From the NCBI GenBank assembly GCA_963833225.1, contig CAWHXD010000006.1, positions 224,001-288,000 of the forward strand: DNA of 64,000 nt, written 5' to 3'. The notes beneath the pieces were generated by a model. It did no database searches. It saw nothing but the letters and a program-made list of their open reading frames with translations, and was not told the origin of the DNA. Both the position numbers and the translations under genes were made by a program. This document shows positions 2,310 through 48,603 of this stretch, piece by piece (within the stretch, counting starts at the first letter, position 1; each line of letters opens with the position of its first letter). The stretch comes from an uncultured Chloroflexia bacterium. Its GTDB lineage: Bacteria; Chloroflexota; Limnocylindria; Limnocylindrales; CSP1-4.

Positions 2310-2338
2310 GGTCGCCGCCGACGCCGCTTGCCGCGGCC

Positions 2339-5138: not shown

Positions 5139-5146
5139 GGGAGCGG

Positions 5147-5662: not shown

Positions 5663-5769
5663 GGGGCGCAGGGATACGGGACCCCCGTGCGGGCCAGGGC
5701 GGGCCCCGGTGGTCAGCGCTGACAGCGGAAACGCCTGGGTCTCGGTTTCGGGGCTCCTCTCAGCCGCGC

Positions 5770-5970: not shown

Positions 5971-6150
5971 GGTTCCTCCGTGCAGTGAGGCGAAGGGTAG
6001 CGCGCCGCGGCGCAGGTCGTCTTCCGGGCGGGCCGCGAGGTCCTGCCAGCGAGCCTGCCGCTCGGCGGCCTGCTCGTCCTCGTCGCGGTCGCCCCCTGCT
6101 CGTGGTCGGCCGTTGAGCGAGCCGGCGCACCGCGGGCGCAGAATGTACCC

Positions 6151-6414
6151 GTGATCCGCCAGGTCTTCGCCGACCCGATGTTCGGCCCGACGGCAGCGGT
6201 CTTCGGCATCCGAATCGACCTGCTCCTGCTCGCGGTCGCTGCCGCCTGCTGGGTCGTCGGGATGCTCCTGCTGCGTCGCGTGCTGCGCATCGAGGGCGAC
6301 GCCCACTCGTTCCGGGCGACGAACCGCAGGGACCTGACGACCACGGTCACGATCGCCGGCGTGGTCGCGTTCGTCGCGCTGGGAGCGCTTGTGGTGGCGA
6401 TCAGCGCCACCTGA
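6151..6414 (+). CDS. Small two-TM membrane protein
   Basis: Two hydrophobic helices; leaderless-type CAGAAT-N6-GTG start. Confidence 0.55.
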   Translation: MIRQVFADPMFGPTAAVFGIRIDLLLLAVAAACWVVGMLLLRRVLRIEGDAHSFRATNRRDLTTTVTIAGVVAFVALGALVVAISAT

Positions 6415-6474
6415 CCGCCTGGCGTCGACGATCCGCCGCCGGTCCGTCCTCGACGGCGCTTCGCCTTGTCGCCG

Positions 6475-7740
6475 TCAGTTCCGCGGCAGCACTCGGACGG
6501 CCGCCCGGGGTGTCACGTCGCCCTCTCGCAGGACCCGCGCGTACCAGCGCGCGTCTTGCGGGTGAACCTTGTGGCTGATTCGTGAGATGCGGGCCTCGAG
6601 GAACCAGTGAGCCTGGGTCCGGCACGGGGTGGCGGGGTAGGTCAGCTCCAGCAACGGGCCGGTGTCCGGGTCGCCGAGGGCAAGGCGATCCCCAGGCCGC
6701 AGCGCCGCCCAGTCGATCCCGACCAGCGTGAGGTTCTCGCCATACGAACCCGGGAACGCCCGGTGGCCGTCGCTGCGGACGCGCTCGATGGCCTCCTGGG
6801 CGTACAGGCAGATTGCCTGGTCGACGCCACCGTGGACCGGCTCAGGATCGTGGTGGCGGTCACCCTCGAGTCCAAGGCGCCCGACGGATGCTCCATCGAT
6901 CGGCAGCTTGGGCACCCCACCGTCGTTGCGGTTCACCGACGCCACCAGGCCCTCGCGCCCGGGCGCGGGGGCCAGCCGGCGGGCAACCGACAGTCTCGTC
7001 GTATACGGCAGGTCGACCGCTTCCCGCCCGGCCGTTGCCGGGTCGGACTCGAGGAGCGCCCGGAGGTCCGCGAGCAGGGCCTCGCGTCTCGCCGGCTCCA
7101 GCGAGGCAACGGTGCTGATCGACGCCACCCGGTCCAGGACGCCGTCCACCGTCTGGCGATGGACGTGCTGGAACGTCCGGTCCTCGAGCGGCTCGAACAG
7201 GCCGCAGCGCTCCACGCGCTCGCGCCAGCCGTGGTGCTGGCTCGGAGCTTCGCCGCCGGTGGTGGTCTCCATGAGCTCGCCGAGGCGCCGCACCCACGGC
7301 ACCGACTCGTCGCGGATGTTGTAGGCCAGGACCAGGCGACCGCCGGGGCGCAGCACGCGGTGGATCTCTGACAGGGCACGAACCGTGTTGAACCAGTGGA
7401 AGGCCTGGGCGGCCACGACGCCGTCGACGGAGCCGTTGTCGAGCGGGAGCGCCTCCGCCGTCCCGTCGATCATCTCCGCTCCCGGTGCCGTCACGGCGAG
7501 CTTGGCCCGCATCTCGGCCACGGGTTCCACGGCGATCACCCGGGCCCCGGTCGGGACGAGCTCACGGGTCATCTTGCCGGTGCCGGCGGCGAGGTCGAGG
7601 ACCGTGCGCCCGGCCCGGAGGTCGAGCAGCTCGGCGAGAACCGCGGTGGCGTCGGCGGGATAGCCAGGACGGCCACGCTCGTAGGCATCGGCCGCCCCGC
7701 CAAAGCCGCTGGTGGCGAGCGGATGAACGTCATCGATCAT
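6475..7740 (-). CDS. Class I SAM-dependent methyltransferase fused to a C-terminal MOSC (YiiM-like) domain
   Basis: N-terminal YERGRPGYP, VLDLAAGTGK, AQAFHWF, RVLRPGG; C-terminal GGVPK, GLEGD, HGG, GENLT, TPC, WYARVLREG. Confidence 0.85.
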   Translation of the reverse strand: MIDDVHPLATSGFGGAADAYERGRPGYPADATAVLAELLDLRAGRTVLDLAAGTGKMTRELVPTGARVIAVEPVAEMRAKLAVTAPGAEMIDGTAEALPLDNGSVDGVVAAQAFHWFNTVRALSEIHRVLRPGGRLVLAYNIRDESVPWVRRLGELMETTTGGEAPSQHHGWRERVERCGLFEPLEDRTFQHVHRQTVDGVLDRVASISTVASLEPARREALLADLRALLESDPATAGREAVDLPYTTRLSVARRLAPAPGREGLVASVNRNDGGVPKLPIDGASVGRLGLEGDRHHDPEPVHGGVDQAICLYAQEAIERVRSDGHRAFPGSYGENLTLVGIDWAALRPGDRLALGDPDTGPLLELTYPATPCRTQAHWFLEARISRISHKVHPQDARWYARVLREGDVTPRAAVRVLPRN

Positions 7741-34892: not shown

Positions 34893-35555
34893 TCAGAGCG
34901 CCCGGACGATCGTCTCCAGGCGGGCCGTGAACGCTCGCGCGTCCTCGTCCGGAAGCGCGCGGATCGGTGCGCCGATGCGGACCTCGACGGGATGGCGACG
35001 TGGCCGCCGCCCGCCCTTGGGCAGGACCTGGCGGATGCCGACGATCCGGATGGGCAGGACCTGGCGACCGGTGTGGCGCGCGAGGAGCCCGATTCCCGGC
35101 TGGAACGGGTTGATGTCACCCGTCATCGTGCGGGTGCCCTCGGGGAACATCACCACGTGCCAGCCCGCAGCGAGCAGGCCCTCTGCCGCCGCGATCGAGT
35201 CGGCGCCGCGGCCCGTCCGGTTGAAGGCGAACGCCCCGAGCCACGCGGCCACGAACCAGCGCGTCCGTTTGGTGGTGAAGTAGTCGGCTGCTGCTGCGGC
35301 GGTCATCCGGCGGCGGTGGCCGGGACCCAGCGCCAGCCGGATCGCGGAGAAGTCGAAATGGCTCGCGTGCGTCGGCGCGATGAGCGACGGACCCTCGAGC
35401 GCAGCCAGGTGCTCGTGGCCGACCACCCGAGGACCCACGAGGAACCAGCCGATGATCGGCCCGAAGAGCCGGGCCGTGACCTCCCGCAGCACGATCGCAG
35501 GTATCGAGAACTGCCGGCCGGTGGGCGGCGTGACCCGGCGGGCACGCTTGATCAT
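34893..35555 (-). CDS. Lysophospholipid acyltransferase (PlsC family)
   Basis: HASHFD (HxxxxD), AAADYF, FPEGTR. Confidence 0.88.
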   Translation of the reverse strand: MIKRARRVTPPTGRQFSIPAIVLREVTARLFGPIIGWFLVGPRVVGHEHLAALEGPSLIAPTHASHFDFSAIRLALGPGHRRRMTAAAAADYFTTKRTRWFVAAWLGAFAFNRTGRGADSIAAAEGLLAAGWHVVMFPEGTRTMTGDINPFQPGIGLLARHTGRQVLPIRIVGIRQVLPKGGRRPRRHPVEVRIGAPIRALPDEDARAFTARLETIVRAL

Positions 35556-36997
35556 CGCCGCTGGCTGGACCCGCCGCGCCGGAGCACCTCGCGGGCGGCC
35601 AGCCGGCCGCTCATGCCGTGCACCCCACCGCCAGGCGGCGTGGATGAAGAGCACAGGAACAGCGACGGGTTGGGAGTCGTGTACGGGTTCCAGCGCGGAA
35701 CCGGCCGGAACAGCAGCTGGCGCCAGTCGCCGATGCCGCCGTTGATGTCACCACCCACGTAGTTGGCGTCATAGGCCTCCATCCCGATCGCATCCTTCGT
35801 GGCGCGAGCCAGGACCAGATCGCCGAACCCTGGGGCGAACCGCTCGAGCTGGGCTTCGATCGCGGCCGTCATGTCGACCGTCGAGCCGTTCGGAACGTGG
35901 CAGTACGCCCAGGCGACATGCTTGCCCTGGGGCGCGCGCGACGGGTCCGCGATCGTGGGCTGGACGAGGAGGACGAACGGCCGATCGGTGATCCGCCCCC
36001 GTCCGACGGCGTCCTCGGATGCCGCGATCTCTCGGTACGTGCCTCCCAGGTGGACGGTGCCAGCGCGGGCAGTCCCGGGGTCTCGCCAGGGGATCGGCCC
36101 GTCGAGCGCCCAATCGATCTTGAACACGCCGGGGCCATAGCGGAAGCCCTCCAGCTGGCGCCGATATCCCGATGGCAGCCGGCCCGCGGCGATGTCAAGC
36201 ACCTGCCTCGGGGTCAGGTCAAGGAGCACGGCGCGCGACGGCGGCAGATCGCCCAGCGCCGTCACGCGGTGGCCGGTGACCACCTCCACGCCCAGCGACC
36301 GGGCCTCGGCCTCGAGCGCTGCCGCGATCGCCCCGCTCCCGCCGCGGGCCACGGGCCAGCCGACGGCATGCGCGAGCATGCCGAGCACGAGCCCGAACGA
36401 GGCGCTGAGCGGCTGGCCAAGCCGGAGCATCGAGTGTGCCGCCAACCCCGCGAACAGCGCACGAGCGGCGGGCTCACGGAAGGCAAGCCGCACGAGCGCC
36501 GTCGCGGGCAGCACGGCCGGCAGTCCAAACCGGGCCATGAGCAACGGGTGCCGCGGCGGCCGCACCACCGGGCCGAGGATCGCCGGGACCAGCCGTTCCC
36601 ACTCGCGCACCAGGGGGCCGAACAGCCGACGCCACGGATCCGCATCCCGGCCCAGGGCCCCCGCGAGGTCGGTGAGGTCACGCTCAAGCACGATGCTCCG
36701 GTCGGGAGCCAGGGCGTGGGCGACCGGAGCGTCCGGCTGCACCCATTCCAGGCCGTGCCGGGCAAGGTCAACCGACGCGAGGAACGGGGACGCGATTCCC
36801 AGCGGGTGAACGGAGGCGCACGGGTCATGGATGAACCCCGGGAGGGTCAGCTCGGCGGACCGGGAGCCACCGCCCACGCGGTCGGCAGCCTCGTAGATCC
36901 TGACCGTCCGACCGGCGCGAGCGAGTTCGATCGCGGCGGCCAGCCCGTTCGGTCCGGCACCGACGACGAGGGCGTCAAGGGCGCTGGCTCAATTCAT
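35552..36997 (-). CDS. Phytoene dehydrogenase-like FAD oxidoreductase (in-frame TGA at codon 3)
   Basis: VVGAGPNGLAAA, HDPCASVHP, GTVHLGG, WAYCHVP, CSSSTPPGGGVHGM. Confidence 0.85.
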
Positions 36998-37031
36998 GGC
37001 CCGAGGCTAGCGCGTGGACGGATCCGCCGCC

Positions 37032-37790
37032 TCAACTTCCCGTTGCACGGCCACCCGCTGCCCGCCGCCGGATCCAGCGCACCGGCGCCGTGATGGTGCC
37101 TAGCGCGGTGGACACGAGGATGCTGCCTCGGACGTTGCGCACGTAGCGCCACTGGCGCCGCTTGTCGACGCAGACCTTGATGGCGGTGACGCTGGGCTCG
37201 GCGACCCCAACCGATCGAGCGAGATTCTCCAGCGTCCGCTCCCAGAACTTGTCGTTCTGGCGGTTCGCGCCGAACACGTAGCTCAGCTCGACAAACGGGT
37301 CGCTGGCCCGTTCGAGCGCCTGGACTTGGGCAACCGTGGTGTCTCCATCCGTGTGCGAGGAGAACGTGATCCAGGCCGAGAACATGTGGCCCTCGGGCGT
37401 CATGAACGTGAACGACTCGGAATCCGCGTAGATGACCATCACGCCCGTCGACATGGTGAGCGGGGCGCCGGGCACCGCCTGGACCTCGAGCAGCGCAACC
37501 TCTCCGGGGCTGATGCCCGACAGGGGGGCGTAGAACGTGGCGCCCTTGGGCCAGAAGGTCGGGAAGTTGGCCTTCCAGTGGGCGACGAGCTCCTGGGGCG
37601 TCAGTTCGCAGCCCTCCAGGCGGACGGAGAAGGTCTTCTGCCACATCTGGCCGAAGCCCTGGACGGGCCCGGTGACGCGCTTGCCGGTGACCCGGTCGGT
37701 ACCGGCACCGCGGGCGGTGGTGCTGAGCTTGTCGACGGGACGGGCCCACGACTCCTGGTCGCGGGGCGCGCGGGGATCGGGGGTGGTCAT
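37032..37790 (-). CDS. Conserved hypothetical protein, last gene of the STAS operon
   Basis: Clean ORF with AAGGAG RBS; GPVQGFGQMWQKT and FTFMTPEGH motifs; family not securely recognised (DUF1990-like fold suspected). Confidence 0.65.
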   Translation of the reverse strand: MTTPDPRAPRDQESWARPVDKLSTTARGAGTDRVTGKRVTGPVQGFGQMWQKTFSVRLEGCELTPQELVAHWKANFPTFWPKGATFYAPLSGISPGEVALLEVQAVPGAPLTMSTGVMVIYADSESFTFMTPEGHMFSAWITFSSHTDGDTTVAQVQALERASDPFVELSYVFGANRQNDKFWERTLENLARSVGVAEPSVTAIKVCVDKRRQWRYVRNVRGSILVSTALGTITAPVRWIRRRAAGGRATGS

Positions 37791-37847
37791 GGGGGTATCT
37801 CCTTGCTCGGGGCGAAGCGGCGCGCGGGTCTCGCCCGCCGCGACGGG

Positions 37848-38186
37848 TCAGCGGGCGGCAGCCAGCGCGGCGGTCTCGTCGTCGTGGATCGCGATCGCCT
37901 CGTCGAGGCGGGTCAGCTCGAGGATCTGCTTGTAGTGGTCAGACAGTCCGACGGCGAGCAGCTTCTGACCGGCGCGCTGGGCCCGGACGAGGAGCGTCAC
38001 CAGGAGGCCGATCCCGCCCGAGTTCATGTACTCGAGCTGGCCGAAGTCGAGGACGATCGAACGGGCGTCGCCGGCCTCTGCGTAGGCCGCCATGATCGGC
38101 GGCTCGCTGCCGCCCGTGATCTCGCCGTGGATTCGGAGGATCGCGGTCGACCCATCGCGGGTCACGTCGACGGTTGTGTCGGTCAT
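37848..38186 (-). CDS. STAS anti-sigma-factor antagonist (RsbV/SpoIIAA-like)
   Basis: IHGEI, VLDFGQLEYMNSGGI (phospho-Ser), ILELTRL. Confidence 0.9.
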   Translation of the reverse strand: MTDTTVDVTRDGSTAILRIHGEITGGSEPPIMAAYAEAGDARSIVLDFGQLEYMNSGGIGLLVTLLVRAQRAGQKLLAVGLSDHYKQILELTRLDEAIAIHDDETAALAAAR

Positions 38187-38545
38187 CGTGCTGCCTCCTC
38201 TGGGACGCTGGATGCCGACGCGCCGTCGGCGATCGTGAGGTAGTCGGACAGGCGCGTGATCCGGAAGATCTCGCGGTAGTGGTCGGACAGACCGAGCGCG
38301 ATCACGTCACGGTGGTCGCGGCGGGCCTCCGCCAGGAGCCGGACGATGAGCGCGATGCCCGTCGAGTTGATGTAGTCCACGTCGCCGAAGTCGAGGATGA
38401 CGCGTGTCGCGCCGGTGCCGGCGGCCTGGGCGTATGCCGCGGCGAGGGCCTCGTCCGCGGCGATGTCCACGTCTCCCCGCATCTCCAGACGGGCCTCGCC
38501 GGGGGTCGTGGCAACAACCTCGACCGTCAACCGCTCCTTGCTCAT
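38183..38545 (-). CDS. STAS anti-sigma-factor antagonist (RsbV/SpoIIAA-like)
   Basis: MRGDVD, ILDFGDVDYINSTGI, IFRITRL; AAAGGAGG RBS. Confidence 0.9.
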   Translation of the reverse strand: MSKERLTVEVVATTPGEARLEMRGDVDIAADEALAAAYAQAAGTGATRVILDFGDVDYINSTGIALIVRLLAEARRDHRDVIALGLSDHYREIFRITRLSDYLTIADGASASSVPEEAAR

Positions 38546-38561
38546 GACGACCTCCTTTGGG

Positions 38562-40220
38562 TCAGCGCCCATCACGGGCGACGGTGAGCGTCACGGTCTG
38601 CATGCCGTCCGCGGCGTGCACGTCCATGCCGTCCACCATGTGGCGGATCAGGAACAAGCCCCAGCCGCGCGGCTTCTGACGGCCCTCAAGCTTCGCGTCG
38701 AGGTCGGGCATCTCGGCGTCGGGGACTGGTCCGGACAGCGCCCGGTCGGTCACGCGGACGCGGATCGTCTCGTGGTCCGCGTCCACGCGGACGTCAACGG
38801 GCACCTCTGGATTGCCCTGGGACCCGTACTCGATGGCATTCATCACGGTCTCGGCGACCGCGGTCTTGAGGCGCTCGAGGCGCGCCGGCCCGAGGTGGAG
38901 CGGCTCGACGGCCGCGGCCACCCGCTGCATGGCGGCGCGCTCGTTGCCGATGGCGCCTTCGATGGTGAAGGCGAGCAGCGGCTTGGCGTGGTCGACCCCC
39001 TCCGACGCGGCAGCGACCGGCTCCTGGTCACGGGTCACCGGGACCTCGGGACGGTTCTCAGCCCAGGCGTCAGAGGTGCCGATCGAGCGGCGCAGGGTCA
39101 CCAGCGTGATGTCGTCCTCCTGCTCCATGCCGGGTCCCGTGAAGGCGTGGAGCTCCTCGAGCAGGCGGTCGAGCAGCGCGCTTCCGGCGTCGTCAGTCGC
39201 CATTGCCTCGCGCAGGCGCGGGAAGCCGTACATCTCGCGGCCCGGTCCGTGCTGTTCCACGAGGCCGTCCGAGTAGAGCAGCATCGCCTCGCCCTGGCCG
39301 ACGAAGCCCTCCGTCTCCTCGTACGCGATGCCCGGCATGAGGCCGAGCGGGAGGCCGGTCGCCCGCAGCTCGATCACCCCGTCTGTCGTGCGCACGTACG
39401 GGAGGTTGTGACCGGCATTCGCGAACACGAAGCGGCCGGTCGCCGGTTCCAGGACGCCGTACAGGCAGGTCACGAACATGCGGGCGGGCATCTCCGGGGC
39501 AAGCAGTTCGTTCGCGCGGGCGAGGACCTTGCCGGGCTCGACGAGCCGTGGCGCCTCGGCCCGGAGGATCGAGTGTGTGCGGGCCATGACGAGGGCCGCC
39601 GGGACGCCCTTGTCGGTGACGTCGCCGACGACGACACCGATGCGGCCCTCGCCAAGGTCGATGAAGTCGTAGAAGTCGCCACCGACCACGCGTGCTGGTC
39701 CGTAGTAGGCGGCGATCTGCCACTCGGGCAGGTTTGGCAGCTCGTGCGGGAGGAACTGCTGCTGGATCAGCTGCGCGACCTTGAGCTCCTGCTCGAAGCG
39801 TTCGCGCTCGGCGGCCTCGGCGGCCTGCTCGCGAACCAGCTGGGCGACGCGGATGGCGGGCGCGGCCTGCGCGGCGAGCGTTGCCAGGAGCCGGCGGTCG
39901 TCCGAGGAGTAATCCTGCTCGGACAGGCGGGGACCGAGATTGAGCGTGCCGATCAGCTCGCCCTGGGTGACGAGCGGCACCACGAGCGCCACGCCGGCCT
40001 CGCGCAGCTCCGTCAGGGCCGTCGATGCCAGCTCGAGACGGGACAGGTCGACCGGCCCGGGCGCCGACTGGAGGTACGCGAACAGCGGATCCGTCTCCGG
40101 GATCTCGATCGCCACACCTGGCTGCTCGGCGGGCGCGGCGGGCATCGTGAGGGCGATGTCGGTCGCGTCCGGGGCGGGCCGGCGGCGGAAGCGGCGGAAG
40201 GGGCGGGTCAGAGCGGTCAT
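38562..40220 (-). CDS. Partial GAF + SpoIIE/PP2C phosphatase + RsbW-like HATPase kinase
   Basis: LVVPL..QGELIGTLNLG...DRRLLATLAAQAA; VGGDFYD, GDVTDKG, NAGH, YSDGLVE, DDITL; ETVMNAIEYG, RGWGLFLI. Alternative start at 40253. Confidence 0.9.
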   Translation of the reverse strand: MTALTRPFRRFRRRPAPDATDIALTMPAAPAEQPGVAIEIPETDPLFAYLQSAPGPVDLSRLELASTALTELREAGVALVVPLVTQGELIGTLNLGPRLSEQDYSSDDRRLLATLAAQAAPAIRVAQLVREQAAEAAERERFEQELKVAQLIQQQFLPHELPNLPEWQIAAYYGPARVVGGDFYDFIDLGEGRIGVVVGDVTDKGVPAALVMARTHSILRAEAPRLVEPGKVLARANELLAPEMPARMFVTCLYGVLEPATGRFVFANAGHNLPYVRTTDGVIELRATGLPLGLMPGIAYEETEGFVGQGEAMLLYSDGLVEQHGPGREMYGFPRLREAMATDDAGSALLDRLLEELHAFTGPGMEQEDDITLVTLRRSIGTSDAWAENRPEVPVTRDQEPVAAASEGVDHAKPLLAFTIEGAIGNERAAMQRVAAAVEPLHLGPARLERLKTAVAETVMNAIEYGSQGNPEVPVDVRVDADHETIRVRVTDRALSGPVPDAEMPDLDAKLEGRQKPRGWGLFLIRHMVDGMDVHAADGMQTVTLTVARDGR

Positions 40221-40289
40221 CGGCGCCATCCTCGTGGTTGAGCGTTCGCGCATCGTTACGAAGTTGGTCCTGGTTGGCTGATCGTTGCG
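40221..40289 (-). promoter_or_regulatory. Three-box motif plus -10-like hexamer upstream of the PP2C gene
   Basis: Plus strand CGTTCGC(40243)-N4-CGTTACG(40254)-N22-CGTTGCG(40283); GAGGAT 9 nt beyond the boxes; ATG 7 nt later. Confidence 0.6.
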
Positions 40290-41446
40290 TTACGCAGCCA
40301 GACCGACACTCCGGCAGGGCGGACGGCCTCGTCGGCCGAGGCGGCCAGCGTGCCGCGCAGGGTCACGAGGTCCAGCTCGTCGCGGAGGCGCTCGGCGAAA
40401 TCGTCGATCGTCTGCTGCGCGTCGACGCGGCTCCGGTCGAAGCGCCGGTCGACGGCCGCCTGGACGCGCCGCCGGAGGGGCTGGAACAGGGCGAACGCGG
40501 CGAGCGTTGAGGCCGCCACCGCCAGGGTTCCCCCCTGTGTGACACCCGACAGCAGCGCCTGCAGCGCGACCACCAGGCCACCGAACACGACGGCCAGGAG
40601 CGCGGTGACCGCGACGTACGAGACGGACCGGCTGACGATCCGGTCGATGTCGTACAGGTGGTAGCGACGGATCGCGACCCCGATGGCAGCTGGGATCATG
40701 GGGTACGCGATCACGGCCGGGAGCCACATCCAGGTGCCGTTGGCATCAACAAGGAAGATCATGGTGAACGCGAAGACCACGGCCGACAGGGTCGCCGCGA
40801 GCGCGGCGAGCAGCCACTTGTACTGGGCCCGCGCGGTGCCCCGGGCCCGGCGGAATCGGACGACGAGGGCTCCGATCGCGACCGCGAGGGCCGCGAGAAC
40901 GCCGATGTAGACGAGGTTGTCCAGCATCGGCCAGCCGGGCCAGTCGGGCATGACCGCGAGCGGCAGGAGAACCCGCGCCGTCGACCCGTCGGTGAAGGTG
41001 ACCTGCCAACTCGGCGCGAACGCCAGAACGGCGCTGAAGCCGAGCGGGATGGCCACCGCGATCCGCCCCGCCACGCCGACCCGCCCCGCCGAGAACCGCC
41101 CGGTCGGGAACAGCGTCGCGAGCGCGACGAACAGGCCGAAAAAGAGGCTCGCGCTCCACGCGCTCAACCAGGCGTAGAAGGTGACTCCCGCGTCAGCGTG
41201 GCCGTCGACAACCTGGGACGCGGAGCCCGGGAGCGTGTTCCCGAGCGCGGAGAAGGCGAAGGCGATGCCCAGCAGGAGCCAGCCGACCACCTCTCGTGGC
41301 CGCCGCCAGAGCAGGACCAGGCCCACGGCGGCGAACGAGCCGACGATCAGCCAGCCAGACCAGTCCTGATGGGCCCAGGCCGAGGGCGCGAGGACGAGCA
41401 CTGCGAGGATGCAATACGGGATGACCCGCCATCGTTCGAGCTTCAT
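40256..41446 (-). CDS. Multi-TM sensor-like protein with C-terminal GAF fragment (paralogue 4)
   Basis: VGWLLL, FPTGR, RAQYKW, RYHLYDIDRI, FQPLRRRVQAAVDRRFDR; ends LRDELDL...VSVWLR. Confidence 0.8.
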   Translation of the reverse strand: MKLERWRVIPYCILAVLVLAPSAWAHQDWSGWLIVGSFAAVGLVLLWRRPREVVGWLLLGIAFAFSALGNTLPGSASQVVDGHADAGVTFYAWLSAWSASLFFGLFVALATLFPTGRFSAGRVGVAGRIAVAIPLGFSAVLAFAPSWQVTFTDGSTARVLLPLAVMPDWPGWPMLDNLVYIGVLAALAVAIGALVVRFRRARGTARAQYKWLLAALAATLSAVVFAFTMIFLVDANGTWMWLPAVIAYPMIPAAIGVAIRRYHLYDIDRIVSRSVSYVAVTALLAVVFGGLVVALQALLSGVTQGGTLAVAASTLAAFALFQPLRRRVQAAVDRRFDRSRVDAQQTIDDFAERLRDELDLVTLRGTLAASADEAVRPAGVSVWLRNATISQPGPTS

Positions 41447-42696
41447 GCCGTGCCTCCCCGGGTTGGCCGGATCCAGACGCCGGCTCCGCTCGGTCCGAGC
41501 GCCCGTGCGACCGTGTCAACGGCGCCGGCTTGGATCTCGTCGAGGTCGGTGACACCCCGGAGGTGCTCCGCGTACGCCTCGACGGTCCGCGCGGCGTCGT
41601 AGCGACGGCGGTTGAACCGCTGGTCGACGGCCGCCTGGATGCGTCGTCGAACGGGCTGGAAGACGGCCGCGGCCCCCAGGGTTGAGGCCGCGACGGCCAG
41701 GCTGCTCTCGCTGGCCAGCGGGGCGAGCAACGCCTGGAGGGCGACGATGAGTCCGGCGAACAGCGCCGCGATCAGACCGGTGGTGAGGGCCCACGAGATG
41801 GTCCGGCTGATGATCCGGTCGATCTCGTACAGGCGATAGCGGAGCACGGCGATCCCGATCGCGATCGGGACGCACGGGATGGCGACGATCGGGCCGATCC
41901 AGGCCAGGCCCGACTCGCTCGCGCCCGGGACGAGCGCGCTGACGACGAACCCCGCCAGCACGCCGGCGATGACGAGGCCGAGCGCCGCCGAGATCCAGCG
42001 GAGCTGCTGGCGCTCGAGGCCGGTGGTCCGGCGATAGCGGACGAAGAGCGAAGCGACCGAGCCGGCGAGGAGGACGACGAACGGGAGGACCGCCGTATCC
42101 GGCGTGACCAGTTGCCACACTGGCAGCTGGGGGAGGACCGCCAACGGGTTGCGCACACCCACGCTGGTCGACGCCCCGTTCAAGCTGACGGGAATCTTCG
42201 GCATGAACATGGCCGTCACTGCAACGGCGAGGCAGAGCCCGAGGGCAAGCCGGGCGACGATCCCCCACCGGCCGGTGGGCGGGCGCCCGGACGGAAAGAC
42301 CATCGACAGCACCGCCAGCAGGAAGAACAGCATGAGCCCGGACTGCGCCTGCACGACGGCAATGCCGGCGGCGGTCGGGCTCACGCTGCCGTCGTCGAAC
42401 TGCGCCGCGGTCGCAGGGACCGTCGACAGGATCAGCACGAAGCCCCAGCTCAGCGCGACCAGGATCCAGCCGATCGAGGTGCCCGGGCGCCGGACGGCGA
42501 GGAGCGTCCCCACGCCCGCGTAGGGCACGAACCAGATCAGGCCGATCCCACTCGGCGCGGCGGCGATCGCCCCGAGACCGAACAGGGCAACCAGCAGGAC
42601 ACGCGCGGGCGGCCCCAGCGGCGCTACGGCTTCGATGGCGCCTGCCGCGCTCGCCGGTCCCGGGACGACACGCCAGCGGCGCGCGGCCCCGGTCAC
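41443..42696 (-). CDS. Multi-TM sensor-like protein with C-terminal GAF fragment (paralogue 3)
   Basis: IGWIL, FPSGR, RQQLRW, RYRLYEIDRI, VDQRFNR; ends LRGVTDL...AGVWIR; GTG 42696 preceded by GAGGGG. Confidence 0.8.
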   Translation of the reverse strand: MTGAARRWRVVPGPASAAGAIEAVAPLGPPARVLLVALFGLGAIAAAPSGIGLIWFVPYAGVGTLLAVRRPGTSIGWILVALSWGFVLILSTVPATAAQFDDGSVSPTAAGIAVVQAQSGLMLFFLLAVLSMVFPSGRPPTGRWGIVARLALGLCLAVAVTAMFMPKIPVSLNGASTSVGVRNPLAVLPQLPVWQLVTPDTAVLPFVVLLAGSVASLFVRYRRTTGLERQQLRWISAALGLVIAGVLAGFVVSALVPGASESGLAWIGPIVAIPCVPIAIGIAVLRYRLYEIDRIISRTISWALTTGLIAALFAGLIVALQALLAPLASESSLAVAASTLGAAAVFQPVRRRIQAAVDQRFNRRRYDAARTVEAYAEHLRGVTDLDEIQAGAVDTVARALGPSGAGVWIRPTRGGTA

Positions 42697-42776
42697 GACC
42701 GGTCCCCTCGAACCAATGCGAGGCTGAAGCCGATTGAGCGTGAGCTGGGCGGTATCGGCGGACGTGACGCCATCAT
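42693..42776 (-). CDS. 27-aa spacer ORF coupling two sensor genes
   Basis: MMASRPPIPPSSRSIGFSLALVRGDRS; ATGA overlap at its start and GTGA overlap at its end. Confidence 0.35.
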   Translation of the reverse strand: MMASRPPIPPSSRSIGFSLALVRGDRS

Positions 42777-43999
42777 CGCGTGGTTCCTTGCTGGCGGGTC
42801 CAGACGGCCACCGACCGGGGCTGCATCGAGCGCCCGACCACCGTCTCGAGGTGTGCGTTGAGGGTGTCGAGGGCCGTATCGTCGCGCAGCCCGGCGGCGA
42901 ACCCGTCGAGGACGCGCTGGGCATCGATGTGCGCCCGATTGAACCTGCGGTCGACCGCTGTCTGGACGCGCCGACGCAATGGCTGGAACAGGGTGAAGGC
43001 GACCAGCGTCGCCGCGGCGACCGAGACCGTGCTCTGGCCGGTCAGCGGGCTCAACAGCTCCTGCAGCCCGACGACGGTCACGGCGAACATGACCGCGAGC
43101 ATGGCGCTGATGATCAGATAGCTGATGCTGCGGCTGACAATCCGGTCGATATCCCACAGCCGGTAGCGGAGGACCGCGACACCGGCCGAGATCGGGATGC
43201 CCAGGATGGCTGCGGTGACCACGATCTCGGTGAGCTTGGCGGCGCCCGGTGGCATGGCGCCGAGCTTGGCCAACGGGATGACCCAGAACACGAGACCACA
43301 GACCGCGACGCTGAACGCGAGCCACTTGAGCTGCTGACGGCTCTCCCCGGTGGCGCGGCGGAACCGGAGCGCGAGGGCGCTCGCGCCGATGAAGATGGCG
43401 ACGATGAGCGGCAGGTAGGCGATCCATCGCAGCTCGGGCCGGATCGCGATCTCGATGGCGAACGGATTGGACAGGTAGGAGGCGTTGTCGAGGGGCCCCG
43501 GCAGCACGGCGGCACCCAGTGCCGCGAGCGCCACCACACCGACATCGAGCCGAACGATCGGGCGCCAACGCGAGCTCAGCAGGCGTCCATCCGGGAACAC
43601 GAGCGGCAGGAACACGGTCACGAGCGCGATGGCCGGGATCCAGATCCAGCCGGCAAGCCAGGCTGCGACGTCTCCTCCCGCATGGGCGCCCGGCTCGGCG
43701 ATGAGGGCCAGTGCCGCGTACTGATCACACGCGCCCTCGACAGCCGACAGGATCGCGGCGGCCAGGAACAGCCACCCGATCGGATTCCCACGGACGCGGA
43801 CCACCACGATGGCTCCGATCGCCACGCAGGTGCCCGCGATCACGATCGGAAATCCGCGGACCGACCAGGTGCCCGGGACCTCCACCGACCAGGTCGCCGC
43901 GAGCAGGCCGATGCCAATGGTGCACAGCATGCCCGTGAACACGATGCTGGCTGCAGCGGCCAGCCTGGGCAGGAAGGAGCGCACCGCAATCGGGTTCAC
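42773..43999 (-). CDS. Multi-TM sensor-like protein with C-terminal GAF fragment (paralogue 2)
   Basis: NPIGWLF, FPDGR, RQQLKW, RYRLWDIDRI, VDRRFNR; ends LRDDTAL...VAVWTR. Confidence 0.82.
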   Translation of the reverse strand: MNPIAVRSFLPRLAAAASIVFTGMLCTIGIGLLAATWSVEVPGTWSVRGFPIVIAGTCVAIGAIVVVRVRGNPIGWLFLAAAILSAVEGACDQYAALALIAEPGAHAGGDVAAWLAGWIWIPAIALVTVFLPLVFPDGRLLSSRWRPIVRLDVGVVALAALGAAVLPGPLDNASYLSNPFAIEIAIRPELRWIAYLPLIVAIFIGASALALRFRRATGESRQQLKWLAFSVAVCGLVFWVIPLAKLGAMPPGAAKLTEIVVTAAILGIPISAGVAVLRYRLWDIDRIVSRSISYLIISAMLAVMFAVTVVGLQELLSPLTGQSTVSVAAATLVAFTLFQPLRRRVQTAVDRRFNRAHIDAQRVLDGFAAGLRDDTALDTLNAHLETVVGRSMQPRSVAVWTRQQGTTR

Positions 44000-44301
44000 G
44001 GCGTTCCCCGTCGGGCTCGAAGCCACAGCGCGACACCCGAGGGCTCGATCACCTGTCCGACCGTCGCAGCGGTGTTCTGTGATTCGGCGACCAGATCGAC
44101 GACGGTCTCGAAGAACAGCACAAACGCAACGAGCAGCCAGCCGACGATCTCTCGGGGTCGCGGACAGGTGAGGAACAGGCCGACTCCAGCGAACGACCCG
44201 GTGACCAAGACGTCACTGACTTCGACGCTTGACAACAGCGCGGGCGCGACGATGAGCACCGCGATCGCCGGGTAGGGCACCGCCCGCACCGCGACCCTCA
44301 T
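43996..44301 (-). CDS. Internally shortened paralogue: N-terminal TMs joined in frame to the C-terminal GAF fragment
   Basis: GSFAGVGLFL..PRPREIVGWLL matches paralogue 4 (GSFAAVGLVL..RRPREVVGWLL); ends VDL...TVGQVIEPSGVALWLR. Confidence 0.65.
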   Translation of the reverse strand: MRVAVRAVPYPAIAVLIVAPALLSSVEVSDVLVTGSFAGVGLFLTCPRPREIVGWLLVAFVLFFETVVDLVAESQNTAATVGQVIEPSGVALWLRARRGTP

Positions 44302-45533
44302 CCCTCCGCCGCCGGGCGCACCCAGACCGCAACCGATCCCGGGTGGAGAGCCTCGTGCACCGTGGTTGCGATGTCAGCCTCCACCGAGGCGAGATCCACC
44401 CGGTCGCGCAGCCGCTCGCCGAACGCGGTCACCACACGCTCCCCGTCGTACCGGGCCCGGTCGAACCGCCTGTCCACCGCTCGCTGGACCCGCCGGCGCA
44501 GCGGGGCGAAGAGCGCGAACGCCACCAGCGTGGAGGCCGCCACCGCGAGCGTCTGCCCCTGCGTGAACCCGGCGAGGACCCCCTGGAGCCCGACGACGAG
44601 CCCGGCGAACACCGCGACGAGCAGGCCCGTCACCAGTGCCCAGCCGATCGTGCGGCTGATGATCCGGTCGATCTCGTACAGCCGGTACCGGAGGATCGCG
44701 GCGCCGATCGCCATCGGAAACAGGGTCCACGAGATCCCGACGGCCAGGTCACCGACCTCCGAGTAGCCGTTCGGTCCGGCCTCCGCACCGTAGGTGACCA
44801 TGGCTGCCGTGACAAGCGAGGCGGCTGCGGCGACCCACTTGAGCTGCGCCCGCTCGAGTGCTCCGGAACGCCGCCAGCGTCCGACGAGCGACAGCGCGGC
44901 GAGCCCGATGCACAGCACGGTCAGCCCATAGACGCCCTCCCAGATCGCCCAGAGCGGAGTCGGTGGCGGCGCCAGCGGATTCTCCAGCCACGTGTAGTAC
45001 GGGAAGGCGCCGGGCCGCAGGGCCGCCCCGCAGAACACCAGCGTGGCGAAGAGCGCAGTCGATCCAACCAGCCACCGCCACCGTGGTGAGGGCAGGTGCC
45101 CGTCGGGGAACACCAGGAACAGCAGTGCGATGGCGAGGAAGAGCGGACCGTCCATGAGGCTGATCAAGAGCGCCGCCAGGGCGATGCCGGGCATGGGTTC
45201 GGGGTGGCGGATGTACGCGTCGAGGACGACGTACCCTGCGAGCGGGAACCCGATGGCGAGCACGAGCGGCCCGACGACGTTGCCGGGCCGGCGGACCGCG
45301 ATCAGCCACCCGACGACGAGGAACGTGATCGTCGCGACGAGGAAGACGAGACCGAGGACTGTTGGCGTCGTGTCGTCCAGCAGCCGGGCCAACGTCGCAA
45401 TCGAGGCCACGAGGACGGTCAGGCCGACGATCAAGGCCTGCAGCTGGCGGGCGACGTGGCGCTTGGGCGGAGCCTGACCCGCCTGTGACCTGAAGTCCGC
45501 TCCCGAACCCCGTGCCACGGCACGCTCGCTCAT
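44298..45533 (-). CDS. Multi-TM sensor-like protein with C-terminal GAF fragment (paralogue 1)
   Basis: RRPGNVVG, FPDGH, RAQLKW, RYRLYEIDRI, VDRRFDR; ends FGERLRDRVDL...VAVWVR. Confidence 0.82.
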   Translation of the reverse strand: MSERAVARGSGADFRSQAGQAPPKRHVARQLQALIVGLTVLVASIATLARLLDDTTPTVLGLVFLVATITFLVVGWLIAVRRPGNVVGPLVLAIGFPLAGYVVLDAYIRHPEPMPGIALAALLISLMDGPLFLAIALLFLVFPDGHLPSPRWRWLVGSTALFATLVFCGAALRPGAFPYYTWLENPLAPPPTPLWAIWEGVYGLTVLCIGLAALSLVGRWRRSGALERAQLKWVAAAASLVTAAMVTYGAEAGPNGYSEVGDLAVGISWTLFPMAIGAAILRYRLYEIDRIISRTIGWALVTGLLVAVFAGLVVGLQGVLAGFTQGQTLAVAASTLVAFALFAPLRRRVQRAVDRRFDRARYDGERVVTAFGERLRDRVDLASVEADIATTVHEALHPGSVAVWVRPAAEG

Positions 45534-45697
45534 GTCGTCTCCCCGGACCCGCGACACAGCCACACGCCGATCCTGGTCGGCAGCACCGCCGCTTCGACCG
45601 TCGCCCGAGCATCGCGGCCGATGGTCGGCAGATCCACCTCGCCACGGAGGCGTTCGCCCGGGAAGAGCAGCGCCAGTGCGATGCGGGACGCGGTCAT
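45530..45697 (-). CDS. 55-aa micro-protein consisting essentially of the shared C-terminal GAF fragment
   Basis: Manual translation MTASRIALALLFPGERLRGEVDLPTIGRDARATVEAAVLPTRIGVWLCRGSGETT; its stop overlaps the ATG of the next gene. Confidence 0.65.
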   Translation of the reverse strand: MTASRIALALLFPGERLRGEVDLPTIGRDARATVEAAVLPTRIGVWLCRGSGETT

Positions 45698-45771
45698 GGC
45701 ACCCGATGGTGAGGGCGGGTCGTTCCCAAAACGTTACGGGATTCGGCGCCGAAGTTGTACCGTTGCGCGAC
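45698..45771. promoter_or_regulatory. Divergent promoter region with three-box motif (candidate BTAD/SARP site)
   Basis: CGTTCCC(45721)-N4-CGTTACG(45732)-N22-CGTTGCG(45761); leftward CACCAT 9 nt beyond the boxes; rightward TACCGT-N8-ATG. Confidence 0.62.
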
Positions 45772-48603
45772 ATGTCACTTGACATCCGCGTTCTCGGCCC
45801 CCTCGAGGTCCACGTGGACGGCGAGCCGATCCGCGTGGACACGCGGAAGGCCCAGGCGATCGTCGCCGTGCTCGCGGTTGAACGGCGTCCCTATGCGCGC
45901 GATGAGCTGGCGGCACTGTTCTGGCCCGAGTCGGGCGACGAGTCGGCACGGAACGCGCTGCGACGGACCCTGTCCGTGCTTCGCGCGGCGCTCGGCGGAC
46001 GGTGGCTGCGCGTCGATCGTGCGACGGTGGCGCTCGCCGATCACGGTGACGGCGTGTGGCTGGACCTGGCCGTGCTCGAGGGAGCGGCGGAAGCGGGCGG
46101 GCATTCCGCGCTCACCGACGCGGCGGCGCTTGCCCGGGGGCCCTTTCTCGCCGGCTTCTCACTCCGCGACAGCCCGGATTTCGATGACTGGCACGCGACC
46201 CGGGCGGTTACCGTTGAACGGCGGATCGTGGACGTCCTCGAGCGGCTTGTCTCAGCAGCGGAGTCCGCCGGCGACACCGCGGCCGCCATCACGGCGGCTA
46301 CCCGGCTCGTGGAGCTGAACCCGCTCGACGAGCCGGCGCGCCGACGCCTCATGACCGCTCTTGCCCGCAGCGGTGACCGGGCCGCGGCGATCCGCCAATA
46401 CCGTGCGACCGTCGCGATGCTCGAGCGCGAGCTCGGCGTGAGCCCGCTCGCCGAGACCACGGCGGCCTACGAGGCGATCCGTGACGAACGGCTCGGTCCC
46501 GTCGTGACCGCTGCGGCGGCAGTTGCTGCCACGGGCCCAGAGCCGCCACCGGCTGCGGCCGCGTCACCGCCCCGGCTGCCATTGACGGGTCGCCGCCTGG
46601 AGTTTAAATCACTCCGCGCTGCGCGCCGCTCATCGTCGCCGGACGGGCGAGTCGCCGTCCTCACCGGCGAGGCCGGGATCGGCAAGTCCCGCCTCGCGGA
46701 GGCGCTTCTCGCGGAGGCGGTCGCCGACGAAGGTGTGGTGCTCACCGCACGCGCCTTCCCGGCCGAGGGATCGATCGCCTACGCCCCAATCGTGGAGCTG
46801 CTCCGTTCGGGCTTCGCCCACCAGGATGCGGCTCGCCGCCTGGCCGATGTCCCACCGGGGATCCTCGCAGAGGTGGGGCGGCTCGTGCCCATGCCCGATC
46901 ACGTGACCGCGGGCACCGCGACGGCGGGATCTCCCAATTCACCCGCGGCGCGCGCCCGGCTGCTCGATGCCGTTGCCACGGTCCTCGCCGCGATCGTCCA
47001 CGCCCCCGCTCCGGGCATCGTCGCCGTCGAGGACCTGCAATGGGCGGACAGTGCGTCGAGGGAGGCGATCCTGTACCTGGCCCGGCGGCTGGCCGGGCGA
47101 CCGATGCTCCTCCTCGTCACGTGGCGACCCGAGGACCTGGAGGCCGCCGCCACGACGTTTGCGGATTCCCTCGAGAGCCTTCCGGGCGTGACGTCGATTC
47201 GGCTGGAGCGGCTGGATGACGTTGTCGTCGGTGCGCTCGTCGAGTCAGCGGTCGCCGCGGGCCTGCCACGCTGGGACGCGGCGGCGCTGGCCGCGGAGTC
47301 GGAGGGGCTTCCGCTGTACGTCGTCGAAGCGCTCATGGCGGGTCCCGGAGCGGTTGGGCACAATCCCCCGCGAGGCGTTCGTGCGCTCCTGCACGAGCGT
47401 CTGTCGACCGCTTCCGGGACCGCGAGCCAGGTTCTCGCCGCGGCGGCGGTGATCGGACGCTCGTTCGACTTCGGGACCGTCCGGGCAGCCAGCGGTCGCG
47501 CCGAGGACGAGACCGTCACCGCGCTCGAGGAGCTTGTCCAGCGGGGGATCGTCCGCGAGCTCGCCGGAACCGGCGAGCCGGCGTTCGACTTCGCCCACGC
47601 GCGGCTGCGTGACGCCGCGTACGAGGCCATCGGGACGGCACGGCGCCGGCTGCTCCACCGGCGAGTGGCCGATGCGCTGGGCGCCGATGCGGCCGGTCGC
47701 GACAACCCGGGCCGCCTCGCCAAGATCGCAGGTCATGAGCGGGCCGCAGGTCGCGACGCGGCCGCCGCGGAGGCATACCGGGAGGCAGGACGCGGATCGC
47801 GGCGGGTCTACGCGAACCGGGAGGCGCTGGCGCATCTCGAGATGGCCCTCGCCCTCGGGCACCCGGACGTCGCGGGACTGCAGGTGGCGATCGGCGAGAC
47901 GCGGACCGCGCTCGGCAACTACGCGGGAGCGATTGCGGCATTCGAAGCGGCCGCGGGTCTCGTGTCGGACGCGGCCCTGCCGGAGATCGAGCTGCGACTG
48001 GGCCAGGTCCACGCGCGACGCGGCGATGTGGCAACCGCCGCGAGCCACCTGGATGCGGCGCTGGAGGGCGCCGACGACCGGCTTCGGCCAGCCGTGCTGG
48101 TGGAGCAGGGCGCAGTCGCATTCAGGGCGGACGAGCTGGACGCGGCCGTCTCGTTCGCGAGCACTGCCCTGGGTGCCATCACCGGCACGGAGGACGCGAG
48201 GACGACGGGTGCCGCCAGTCGTCTCCTGGGCCTCGTGGCCCTCCGGCGCGGAGACCTCGACGCGGCGCGGGAGGCCCTTCGGTCGGCCGTCGCTGCGGCG
48301 GACCAGAGCGCGGAACCCAGCGCATCGATCGCAGCCCGCAACGGGCTCGCGCTCGTGGAGGCTGCCGCGGGCCACCGGGACGCGGCGATCACCTTGCTCG
48401 AGGAGGCCCTGGCCGAGTGCCGGCGGACGGGCGAGACGCACCTCGAGGCGGCGGTCGAGAACAACCTCGCCGACCAGCTGCACGCCGTCGGCCGCACGGA
48501 GGAGGCGATGGATCACCTCAAACGTGCCGTGGCCCTGTTCGCCGAGGTCGGCGGGCGGCCGGGCGAGCTTGAGCCCGAGATCTGGAAGCTTGTCTCCTGG
48601 TAG
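45772..48603 (+). CDS. SARP/BTAD-AAA(STAND)-TPR transcriptional regulator
   Basis: IRVLGPLEV, RDELAALFWP, ARGPFLAG, PLDE, LGVSP; Walker A GEAGIGKS; Walker B VEDLQWAD; FAH; TPR tail. Confidence 0.92.
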   Translation: MSLDIRVLGPLEVHVDGEPIRVDTRKAQAIVAVLAVERRPYARDELAALFWPESGDESARNALRRTLSVLRAALGGRWLRVDRATVALADHGDGVWLDLAVLEGAAEAGGHSALTDAAALARGPFLAGFSLRDSPDFDDWHATRAVTVERRIVDVLERLVSAAESAGDTAAAITAATRLVELNPLDEPARRRLMTALARSGDRAAAIRQYRATVAMLERELGVSPLAETTAAYEAIRDERLGPVVTAAAAVAATGPEPPPAAAASPPRLPLTGRRLEFKSLRAARRSSSPDGRVAVLTGEAGIGKSRLAEALLAEAVADEGVVLTARAFPAEGSIAYAPIVELLRSGFAHQDAARRLADVPPGILAEVGRLVPMPDHVTAGTATAGSPNSPAARARLLDAVATVLAAIVHAPAPGIVAVEDLQWADSASREAILYLARRLAGRPMLLLVTWRPEDLEAAATTFADSLESLPGVTSIRLERLDDVVVGALVESAVAAGLPRWDAAALAAESEGLPLYVVEALMAGPGAVGHNPPRGVRALLHERLSTASGTASQVLAAAAVIGRSFDFGTVRAASGRAEDETVTALEELVQRGIVRELAGTGEPAFDFAHARLRDAAYEAIGTARRRLLHRRVADALGADAAGRDNPGRLAKIAGHERAAGRDAAAAEAYREAGRGSRRVYANREALAHLEMALALGHPDVAGLQVAIGETRTALGNYAGAIAAFEAAAGLVSDAALPEIELRLGQVHARRGDVATAASHLDAALEGADDRLRPAVLVEQGAVAFRADELDAAVSFASTALGAITGTEDARTTGAASRLLGLVALRRGDLDAAREALRSAVAAADQSAEPSASIAARNGLALVEAAAGHRDAAITLLEEALAECRRTGETHLEAAVENNLADQLHAVGRTEEAMDHLKRAVALFAEVGGRPGELEPEIWKLVSW

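Follow-up and report, generated by a model that had tools for sequence, protein, structure and literature searches.

How can several membrane proteins without an output domain of their own be wired to one enzyme that begins in the middle of a domain? The question is raised by a locus of an uncultured Chloroflexia bacterium (lineage Limnocylindrales), located in a stretch of 64,000 nucleotides (nt) with a G+C content of ~70% (GenBank contig CAWHXD010000006.1, positions 224,001–288,000), hereafter called the window. A row of genes on its minus strand (37848–45842) holds four membrane paralogues together with a copy of only 101 amino acids (aa), an enzyme gene and two STAS genes. The membrane proteins share a short C-terminal tag, and the enzyme opens with the later part of a GAF domain, followed by a PP2C (SpoIIE) phosphatase domain and an RsbW-type kinase domain. 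A first-pass annotation, made from the letters alone, had suggested that the tag supplies the missing start of the GAF domain in trans. One part of this suggestion, the homology between the tag and the missing start, stood up; the other, physical docking between separate chains, is what we infer, and the probability that the sensor tags complete the half-GAF in trans is put at roughly 60%.

Membrane proteins ending in a common tag

All five membrane open reading frames (ORFs) finish with the pattern P-x(5)-V/A/G-x-W-x-R, after which 5–11 residues follow before the stop, as had been noticed before; the fuller pattern of the tag is ...L-R-x-x-x-D-L... P-x(5)-x-x-W-x-R. The first-pass annotation had counted six such ORFs, two of them in short versions. 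The shared tag and the tag sequences that it quoted are all present, but a six-frame pattern scan revealed exactly five tags in the region and only one short version, the 101-aa ORF. In the whole window the same scan gave 17 matches, of which five are the tags while the other twelve, by reading, lack upstream family sequence. The full membrane paralogues are 34–38% identical to paralogue 1. The 101-aa ORF retains the first ~55 residues and the tag, with the first transmembrane stretch joined in frame to the tag, and shows 46% identity to residues 7–67 of paralogue 4. The true start of paralogue 1 is probably further in than the ORF suggests, near the ATG at 45533, since its relatives are ~390–410 aa long, and the start of paralogue 3 is probably also further in; the stop of paralogue 3 overlaps the ATG of paralogue 4 (ATGA).

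Among the four window paralogues the identity is 37% in the tag, 30% in the membrane body, 62% in the juxtamembrane helix and 59% in the last membrane helices, the juxtamembrane segment being the best conserved part (column conservation 0.74). A database search with the membrane protein gave 2657 matches at E ≤ 0.001 among 8000 candidates scored. The tag was found, using a loose pattern, within the last 60 residues of 117 of the 120 closest relatives of near length that were listed, and W383 is invariant in all 83 rows of the family alignment; the tag is therefore not a chance pattern.

No Pfam or NCBIfam family was matched by the membrane proteins and no GAF match was obtained at E ≤ 0.1. HisKA_7TM (PF16927) gave no match at E ≤ 0.1 in any of the five window proteins, while precomputed annotation places it on three relatives (P0025, P0053 and P0264). 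A protein atlas contained only unnamed clusters of ~400-aa proteins, the nearest named cluster being HisKA_7TM at 0.84, which serves as a lead only.

The tag is homologous to the missing start of the GAF domain

Against three Pfam profiles (PF01590 / PF13185 / PF13492) the enzyme matches positions 42–133 of 133 in GAF, 49–127 of 129 in GAF_3 and 91–135 of 136 in GAF_2, and from this partial coverage its GAF domain lacks the first ~45 profile positions, in agreement with the earlier view that the gene after the array opens with the later GAF part. What is present consists of a helix (DPLFAYLQ), a second helix, a beta hairpin (VALVVPL / ELIGTLNL) and the start of a long exit helix.

Fused homologues, which the first-pass annotation had proposed to look for, do exist. 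A search with residues 1–140 of the enzyme gave 5938 matches at E ≤ 0.001, and among the best 150 of these, nine proteins of 493–1008 aa have a half-GAF match that begins only at residue 356–570. They read as a membrane module, a juxtamembrane helix, the tag, a linker of ~10–45 residues (lengths read by eye), the half-GAF and SpoIIE, and their half-GAF is 54–62% identical to that of the window. Seven are full-length (P0434, P0452, P0432, P0422, P0459, P0442 and P0435); two, P0434 and P0432, also carry HATPase_c_2, and P0434, with 947 aa, is near the sum of the two window genes (396 + 552). In six of the seven the Pfam GAF match runs from the tag to the end of the domain, as in P0435 where residues 371–491 correspond to profile positions 3–133. 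The GAF profile likewise starts at the tag, at positions 1–7, in more distant fusions (P0071, P0063, P0020, P0017 and P0026), and 51 of 71 longer membrane-module relatives carry HisKA_3 according to a count of the listing; these are mostly sensor kinases, with the module as their input and the juxtamembrane helix running on into a GAF. The partial match of the enzyme, the lack of a match in the membrane proteins and the coverage of the fusions together mean that each gene holds part of a GAF domain and neither holds the whole, the tag being the homologue of the missing start.

Structure models of the two forms are consistent with this division. In the AlphaFold2 model of the fusion P0435 the tag forms a helix (370–385) and a strand (390–394), with a block predicted local distance difference test score (pLDDT) of 71–83, and after the tag and a loop there follow a helix, a helix, a hairpin and a long helix, as in the enzyme of the window. 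The enzyme modelled alone has residues 1–30 below pLDDT 50, then two short helices, one hairpin and the long exit helix, with no equivalent of the first helix and strand; the N-terminus of the PP2C protein was thus not modelled as a complete GAF fold. A GAF fold is built around an antiparallel sheet of five to six strands, with helices from the N- and C-terminal parts on its flanks. Compared with such a sheet, the models contain the helix and strand of the tag, two short helices, a two-residue bridge, one hairpin and a long helix, and as modelled the subfamily is a reduced GAF without the usual second strand. The tag strand of P0435 would join the sheet of the hairpin, since a strand assigned by DSSP needs a pairing partner and the only nearby strands are those of the hairpin.

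Two further groups of proteins came up beside the fusions. P0004 (1410 aa) and Pfam-less relatives of 707–1005 aa looked like fusions at first; P0004 was rejected, as it has two membrane modules and arginine/proline-rich stretches where the related operon would shift frame, which looks like read-through. P0315, P0323, P0328, P0346 and others, all very large proteins (1100–3950 aa), have 6–17 stretches matching the second half of the half-GAF (query ~72–140) and appear to be long runs of GAF-like repeats.

The split is conserved

All twelve arrays fetched from the genus have the same layout, with 1–8 full tag genes and fragments beside one enzyme gene and two STAS genes, the enzyme gene coming straight after the main series of tag genes; in one of them (L038) there are one more tag gene and fragments bearing a tag on the far side of the STAS genes. 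None of the 57 full tag ORFs in these arrays runs on for more than 26 residues past the tag. A scan using one genome per species gave 557 relatives, and the best 80 loci were analysed, carrying labels from Chloroflexota (Limnocylindria and others), Actinomycetota (Rubrobacter, Gaiellaceae, Thermoleophilia, Nocardioides, Kribbella and others), Thermomicrobiales and Acidobacteriota. They contain 230 membrane-plus-tag frames, 227 of which stop within 30 residues past the tag and none of which is fused, although fusions are under-sampled here because the loci were chosen by likeness to the 396-aa query. Over both samples together, the stop comes no later than 30 residues past the tag in 284 of the 287 full membrane-tag frames. 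A half-GAF-PP2C frame is present in 27 of the 80 loci and in no case matches the tag model. Up to eight full tag genes occur in one array of the genus and up to nine in a locus of another taxon, and a soil actinomycete in culture, Kribbella sp. VKM Ac-2569 (locus L139), has the cluster too. The split is thus conserved.

Co-occurrence of tag genes and enzyme

The tag genes and the enzyme also co-occur. Among 41 related genomes a tag protein was found in 15 and an enzyme ortholog in 14; 14 have both, one has the tag only, none has the enzyme only and 26 have neither. Of 15 further genomes, selected because no enzyme adjoined their tag-gene locus, 14 contain a single strong half-GAF match (E 1e-32 to 1e-63) at another place, which in at least two cases lies just upstream of the fetched stretch; one genome (G047) has a second, weak match at 4e-9. 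The genome of the window itself contains one strong half-GAF match and nothing else below 1e-4. The co-occurrence expected by the first-pass annotation was thus borne out in both samples, and tag-ended proteins are not routinely found without a half-GAF enzyme, this being the case in one of 15 genomes of the genus sample and in one of the 15 further genomes.

Two other loci in the genome of the window may be recorded here. At L005 (C17:345928-349962) a lone tag-ended paralogue (ORF 1354-2733, minus strand), whose frame continues for ~60 residues past the tag, lies far from the enzyme on another contig, and its neighbours read, by sequence, as genes for the E1-beta and E2 subunits of a 2-oxoacid dehydrogenase. 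At L007 (C7:33170-36928) a more distant membrane module (ORF 1471-2421, minus strand) has its stop inside the last helix, and the next ORF (899-1471, minus strand, 190 aa) contains the rest of that helix and then, by motif reading, a class III cyclase-like sequence. A membrane-module-cyclase gene may have been split here too, or may have undergone a frameshift.

Fused and split forms in a tree

In a tree of 53 half-GAF-PP2C sequences the fused and split forms interleave, and the starred branches force at least three changes between them. The approximately unbiased (AU) test rejects the fused forms as a single clade (p 0.00013), so that, as judged from these sequences, there has been repeated interchange between the fused and the split form. 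No direction of change is claimed; the fusions have linkers of varying length, as might be expected if adjacent genes had been fused anew several times.

Prediction of the complex

The complex of a sensor tail (residues 330–396) with residues 1–135 of the enzyme was predicted using our own alignments and three controls. The interaction prediction score from aligned errors (ipSAE) was 0.56 (runs 0.57, 0.50 and 0.56) while the best of the three controls reached 0.00, the pLDDT of the partner was at least 61 and the runs agreed in at least 81% of contacts. The mark passed here was reached by 58 of 80 solved complexes and two of 110 mismatched pairs, counts that hold only roughly since own alignments were used. 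The predicted complex thus lends weak support to the docking that the first-pass annotation had suggested.

The enzyme, the putative partner-switching genes and their surroundings

The features of the locus are collected in Table 1. The enzyme ORF was first listed as 38562–40253, where an in-frame ATG at 40253 would add 11 aa, but the start is most likely the ATG at 40220, judging from its conservation in the ten related genomes aligned and its use in the database copy P0072 (552 aa). The SpoIIE and RsbW domains had been recognised correctly behind the partial GAF. SpoIIE (PF07228) matched over its full length (profile 2–191 of 192, E 1.5e-48, 165.7 bits against a cut-off of 25), which places a predicted PP2C / SpoIIE phosphatase domain in the enzyme, and HATPase_c_2 (PF13581) matched with E 2.5e-20 (73.2 bits, cut-off 27.4). 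NCBIfam gave weak spIIAB, RsbA and RsbW matches on the kinase domain, all under cut-off. Foldseek with the enzyme model retrieved PP2C structures, with 3ke6 and 1tid among the fold matches; as this search is dominated by the PP2C and kinase domains it is uninformative on the half-GAF.

A phosphatase, a kinase domain and two STAS genes, three of the parts expected of a partner-switching system, are thus present. The fourth would be a target such as a sigma factor; the region 35552–48603 showed no gene for one, and no search for a target was made beyond this region. The 252-aa protein, the oxidoreductase and the SARP/AfsR-like regulator, the true start of which is probably further in than its ORF suggests, accompany the array in most related loci, including those of Kribbella and Gaiellaceae, and with these three genes kept the functional unit may exceed the array and the enzyme.

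The basic motif at the N-terminus of the enzyme is common to split-type enzymes across phyla (L063–L139), where a variable Pro/Ala-rich stretch follows it, and is absent from the single-chain fusions. It resembles the sequence A-L-F-Q-P-L-R-R-R at the membrane exit of the sensors.

Table 1. Position of the genes, domains and sequence elements discussed, in coordinates of the window
Feature	Position	Strand	Remarks
Membrane sensor paralogue 1	44298..45842	-	ORF 514 aa; tag ...LRDRVDL...PGSVAVWVR + 5 aa
101-aa internally deleted copy	43996..44301	-	tag ...PSGVALWLR + 6 aa
Membrane sensor paralogue 2	42773..44026	-	417 aa; tag ...PRSVAVWTR + 6 aa
Membrane sensor paralogue 3	41443..42924	-	ORF 493 aa; tag ...PSGAGVWIR + 7 aa
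Membrane sensor paralogue 4	40256..41446	-	396 aa, = P0192; no Pfam / NCBIfam family
Tag of paralogue 4, residues 355–385	40292..40384	-	homologous to GAF helix alpha1 and strand beta1 of single-chain relatives
Equivalent tags, 31 codons ending at W-x-R	44316-44408, 44017-44109, 42794-42886, 41467-41559	-	
Conserved element CGTAACGATG(T/C)(C/G)CG(A/G)AC	40244..40260	-	~45 nt before the conserved start of the enzyme
Enzyme: half-GAF, PP2C (SpoIIE), RsbW-type kinase (HATPase_c_2)	38562..40220	-	552 aa from conserved start MTALTRPFRR
N-terminal basic motif, M-T-x-L-x-R-x-F-R-R-L-x-G-R type	40179..40220	-	modelled as disordered
Half-GAF, residues 33–135 of the 552-aa protein	39816..40124	-	GAF profile positions ~42–133
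PP2C / SpoIIE phosphatase domain	39087..39650	-	profile and fold match
RsbW / SpoIIAB-type anti-sigma kinase domain (HATPase_c_2)	38583..38939	-	profile match
STAS anti-sigma-factor antagonist 1	38183..38575	-	130 aa, single-domain
STAS anti-sigma-factor antagonist 2	37848..38186	-	112 aa, single-domain
252-aa protein	37032..37790	-	no Pfam / NCBIfam family; after the STAS genes in related clusters, including Actinomycetota
CrtI/CrtO-like FAD oxidoreductase	35552..36877	-	cluster end, kept in many related loci
SARP/AfsR-like regulator (BTAD, AAA_16, TPR)	45532..48603	+	divergent; adjoins the array in many related loci, including Actinomycetota

The junction between the last membrane gene and the enzyme

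When the junction was aligned in eleven genomes (the window and L037–L047) a conserved element appeared in all of them, which in the window overlaps the stop of paralogue 4. An ATG inside it opens an upstream ORF of 11 codons whose TGA overlaps the enzyme ATG in eight of the eleven genomes, while in the window, L042 and L043 one extra base sets this ORF in frame with the enzyme. A Shine-Dalgarno-like GAGGA, 7–9 nt before the enzyme start, is conserved, like the start MTALTRPF itself. The element may be a promoter, an operator or a leader. A role as a repeated recombination site for the switching of cassettes was considered and rejected, as the element occurs once in the window (0.08 expected by chance) and not after each cassette.

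Two variants of the junction were observed among the relatives. In L037, L038 and L047 a different small ORF, absent from the window, lies between the last tag-bearing sequence and the enzyme; its sequence contains ..IHHAITVSGPLERGYSLLAGPYTKLLARETRAL.. in L037 and L047, and L038 has a related sequence. In a close relative, L043 (G020:C4, frame 4856-6796, plus strand), the ortholog of the last sensor has decayed to fragments and its tag (..RPAGVSVWLR) stands in the open frame of the enzyme, ~40 residues before the enzyme start, which would give a soluble, self-completed enzyme if translated from the upstream start.

Discussion

Taken together, the data suggest the following arrangement. One GAF-type domain would be encoded in two pieces on separate genes: the first, helix alpha1 and strand beta1 (~30 residues), at the extreme C-terminus of paralogous membrane proteins with no other output domain, and the second, the rest of the domain, at the beginning of a single cytoplasmic PP2C and RsbW-type enzyme that is followed by its two putative STAS substrates in a partner-switching module. 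The cut after beta1 is conserved, and its simplest interpretation is that the pieces come together again. By docking on the half-GAF, the tag of a sensor would complete the sheet and helix bundle of that domain and tether the enzyme to the sensor. In the single-chain relatives a signal leaving the membrane module would have to cross the juxtamembrane helix, then alpha1 and beta1, then the GAF core, and reach PP2C along the exit helix; in the split form the state of the sensor may likewise pass through the juxtamembrane helix and alpha1 to the long exit helix controlling PP2C. For PPM phosphatases with N-terminal sensor domains, GAF among them, control via a helical linker has been proposed (PMC12143880). 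As all paralogues carry the same plug, the diverged sensors would share, and probably compete for, one enzyme; such docking may be reversible and may affect the phosphatase or kinase activity.

The first-pass annotation had named three outcomes that would tell against it, namely a complete GAF fold of the PP2C protein's N-terminus alone, no interaction predicted or observed, and tag-ended proteins that are routine in genomes with no half-GAF partner. None of these was found, and each computational check run came out in favour, that of the complex weakly.

Several points nevertheless weigh against the completion of the half-GAF by the tags. The half-GAF alone is modelled confidently (block pLDDT 87–94, residues 41–130), and the model therefore demands no partner. 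The tag is about as variable among the window paralogues as the membrane body, and the conserved interface could instead lie in the juxtamembrane helix or the last membrane helices. The score of the complex is in the weak band and its contacts were not reported; values of 0.60 or lower came from only seven of the 80 solved complexes and from both of the mismatched pairs that passed, and the halves of a split domain can also pass because they resemble solved GAF structures. It is common for a tag gene to stand alone, far from the enzyme (L005, L048–L055 and several others of the 80 loci); one genome (G011, 86% complete) has a tag gene with no enzyme ortholog found and another (G045) a tag gene with no half-GAF match. 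The co-occurrence is partly trivial, because most tag genes form one cluster with the enzyme that is gained or lost as a block, and the related genomes counted are not independent. As to the tree, it came from a quick search with support from the Shimodaira-Hasegawa-like approximate likelihood ratio test (SH-aLRT) only and with a root on a long branch, it was inspected before the AU test was run, and some rows labelled as split are database proteins whose neighbouring genes were not inspected.

Some of these points would fit a fission that is real but whose halves no longer meet, so that the sensors act alone or with another partner, the tag serves for example in self-association and the reduced domain is stable, and is regulated, by itself. 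Such an outcome would account for the confident model of the lone half-GAF, the modest identity of the tag (37%), the weak complex score and the lone tag genes, such as the one that the window's own genome has between two apparent 2-oxoacid dehydrogenase genes. It has to be set against a tag that 284 of 287 full ORFs and 117 of the 120 database relatives listed retain at their C-terminal end, a tryptophan (W383) invariant in 83 of 83 rows, a cluster order kept across phyla and the presence of one enzyme per genome in 14 of the 15 genomes with lone tag loci, and halves that have parted would scarcely be expected to switch repeatedly between a fused and a split form. We regard it as unlikely, though a serious alternative.

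A different possibility is that the sensors do bind the enzyme, mainly via other surfaces, for instance with the juxtamembrane helix on the N-terminal basic motif, and that the tag is not inserted as a strand. The juxtamembrane segment is indeed the best conserved part of the sensors (62% among paralogues, column conservation 0.74), but it is equally conserved in the histidine-kinase fusions and is thus not specific to this enzyme. Distant split-type enzymes share an N-terminal motif that the fusions lack, which suggests adaptation to life as a separate chain, yet the motif is modelled as disordered, and in the fusions the tag is contiguous with the half-GAF, lies within the GAF profile and is modelled as helix and strand. 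Binding of this kind seems improbable to us.

Joining of the last membrane gene and the enzyme in translation, by frameshift or read-through, would leave the upstream copies as spare or silent cassettes. The distance of 2 nt between the stop of paralogue 4 and the ATG at 40253, the conserved element overlapping the junction and the decayed tag in frame with the enzyme in L043 are what could be expected in that case. However, the frame offset and the spacer length between the last tag gene and the enzyme vary among genomes, four of the ten aligned relatives have no in-frame tag just upstream of the enzyme and three of these four have a different small ORF there, while the GAGGA and the MTALTRPF start are conserved; in several genomes the enzyme lies upstream of the tag genes or kilobases from them, and the junction element stands once in the window instead of after each cassette. 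Translational joining is for these reasons considered very improbable.

The truncated copies in arrays and database fusions resembling read-through with frameshifted stretches (P0004) might suggest that the array is an artefact, either a row of decaying pseudogenes or one gene that errors of assembly or sequencing have broken up. This is hardly credible, given that the stop recurs at the same position in 284 of the 287 full ORFs, which come from more than 90 loci in independent assemblies, including the cultured Kribbella isolate, and that the paralogues are intact at 34–38% identity to the first.

Completion of the half-GAF in trans can be taken one step further, to a plug-in wiring in which a single fold is kept in two genes, sensors time-share or compete for one enzyme, arrays gain, lose and truncate copies by birth and death, fused and split forms flip, and the enzyme has acquired a dedicated N-terminal motif. 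This wider picture we consider about evenly balanced.

Relation to known systems

In bacterial signalling proteins the sensor and the output usually belong to one chain, or else they communicate by phosphotransfer or via dedicated adaptors. The closest comparison is with the single-chain relatives, unnamed in databases, which share with the window the membrane module, the juxtamembrane helix, the tag and PP2C, a half-GAF of 54–62% identity and, in two cases, an RsbW-type domain. They differ in being one polypeptide with one sensor per enzyme, whereas in the window the domain is cut after beta1, its N-terminal piece is present in 4–5 genes and the enzyme has a new N-terminal motif. The sensor histidine kinases of the NarL type (membrane module-GAF-HisKA_3-HATPase_c) likewise combine the membrane module and juxtamembrane helix with a GAF whose start aligns with the tag, but their kinase output is in cis and their GAF is complete, often with the second strand that is absent here.

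Rv1364c of Mycobacterium tuberculosis (Protein Data Bank 3ke6) gave the best fold match (Foldseek E 2.4e-22) and has the same pairing of PP2C with an RsbW-type kinase and a STAS partner. Its architecture is described as PAS-PP2C-RsbW-RsbV in one chain (PMC12143880). It thus differs in having a complete PAS input in cis and a fused STAS domain, and no membrane sensors or split domain are reported for it.

The stressosome is a large complex with a STAS-domain scaffold of RsbR and RsbS; its sensors are soluble and have STAS domains, and the released kinase RsbT carries the signal. The stressosome / RsbT / RsbU system of Bacillus subtilis is similar in outline, several paralogous sensors acting on one PP2C that controls a STAS partner switch, and differs from the window in that the sensors here are membrane proteins and the proposed contact is the completion of a fold. 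RsbT, RsbR and RsbS were not seen in the cluster, although no search was aimed at them. In the activation of RsbU, the partner RsbT acts on the N-terminal domain and helical linker of the phosphatase (PMC12143880).

Outside signalling, completion of a fold by a second chain is a familiar principle. Donor-strand complementation of chaperone-usher pilus subunits and split inteins both rely on a missing strand or segment supplied by another polypeptide, as proposed here, but they serve assembly or splicing and not signalling. To our knowledge neither has the many-to-one arrangement of sensors, and trans fold completion is not known to us from signalling. A description of a split GAF, of such a system or of the gene family was not found in the literature (subscription journals were outside the scope), in keeping with what the first-pass annotation had stated, and the system appears to be undescribed.

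As the cluster occurs in cultured Kribbella sp. VKM Ac-2569, the proposed wiring is directly testable. If true, it would offer protein engineers a natural GAF split site, tested by evolution, to copy, and it would explain a large unannotated family of membrane proteins of ~400 residues that now look as if they had no output. Cutting a signalling domain within its fold would link many inputs to one output in a way that differs from the usual ones.

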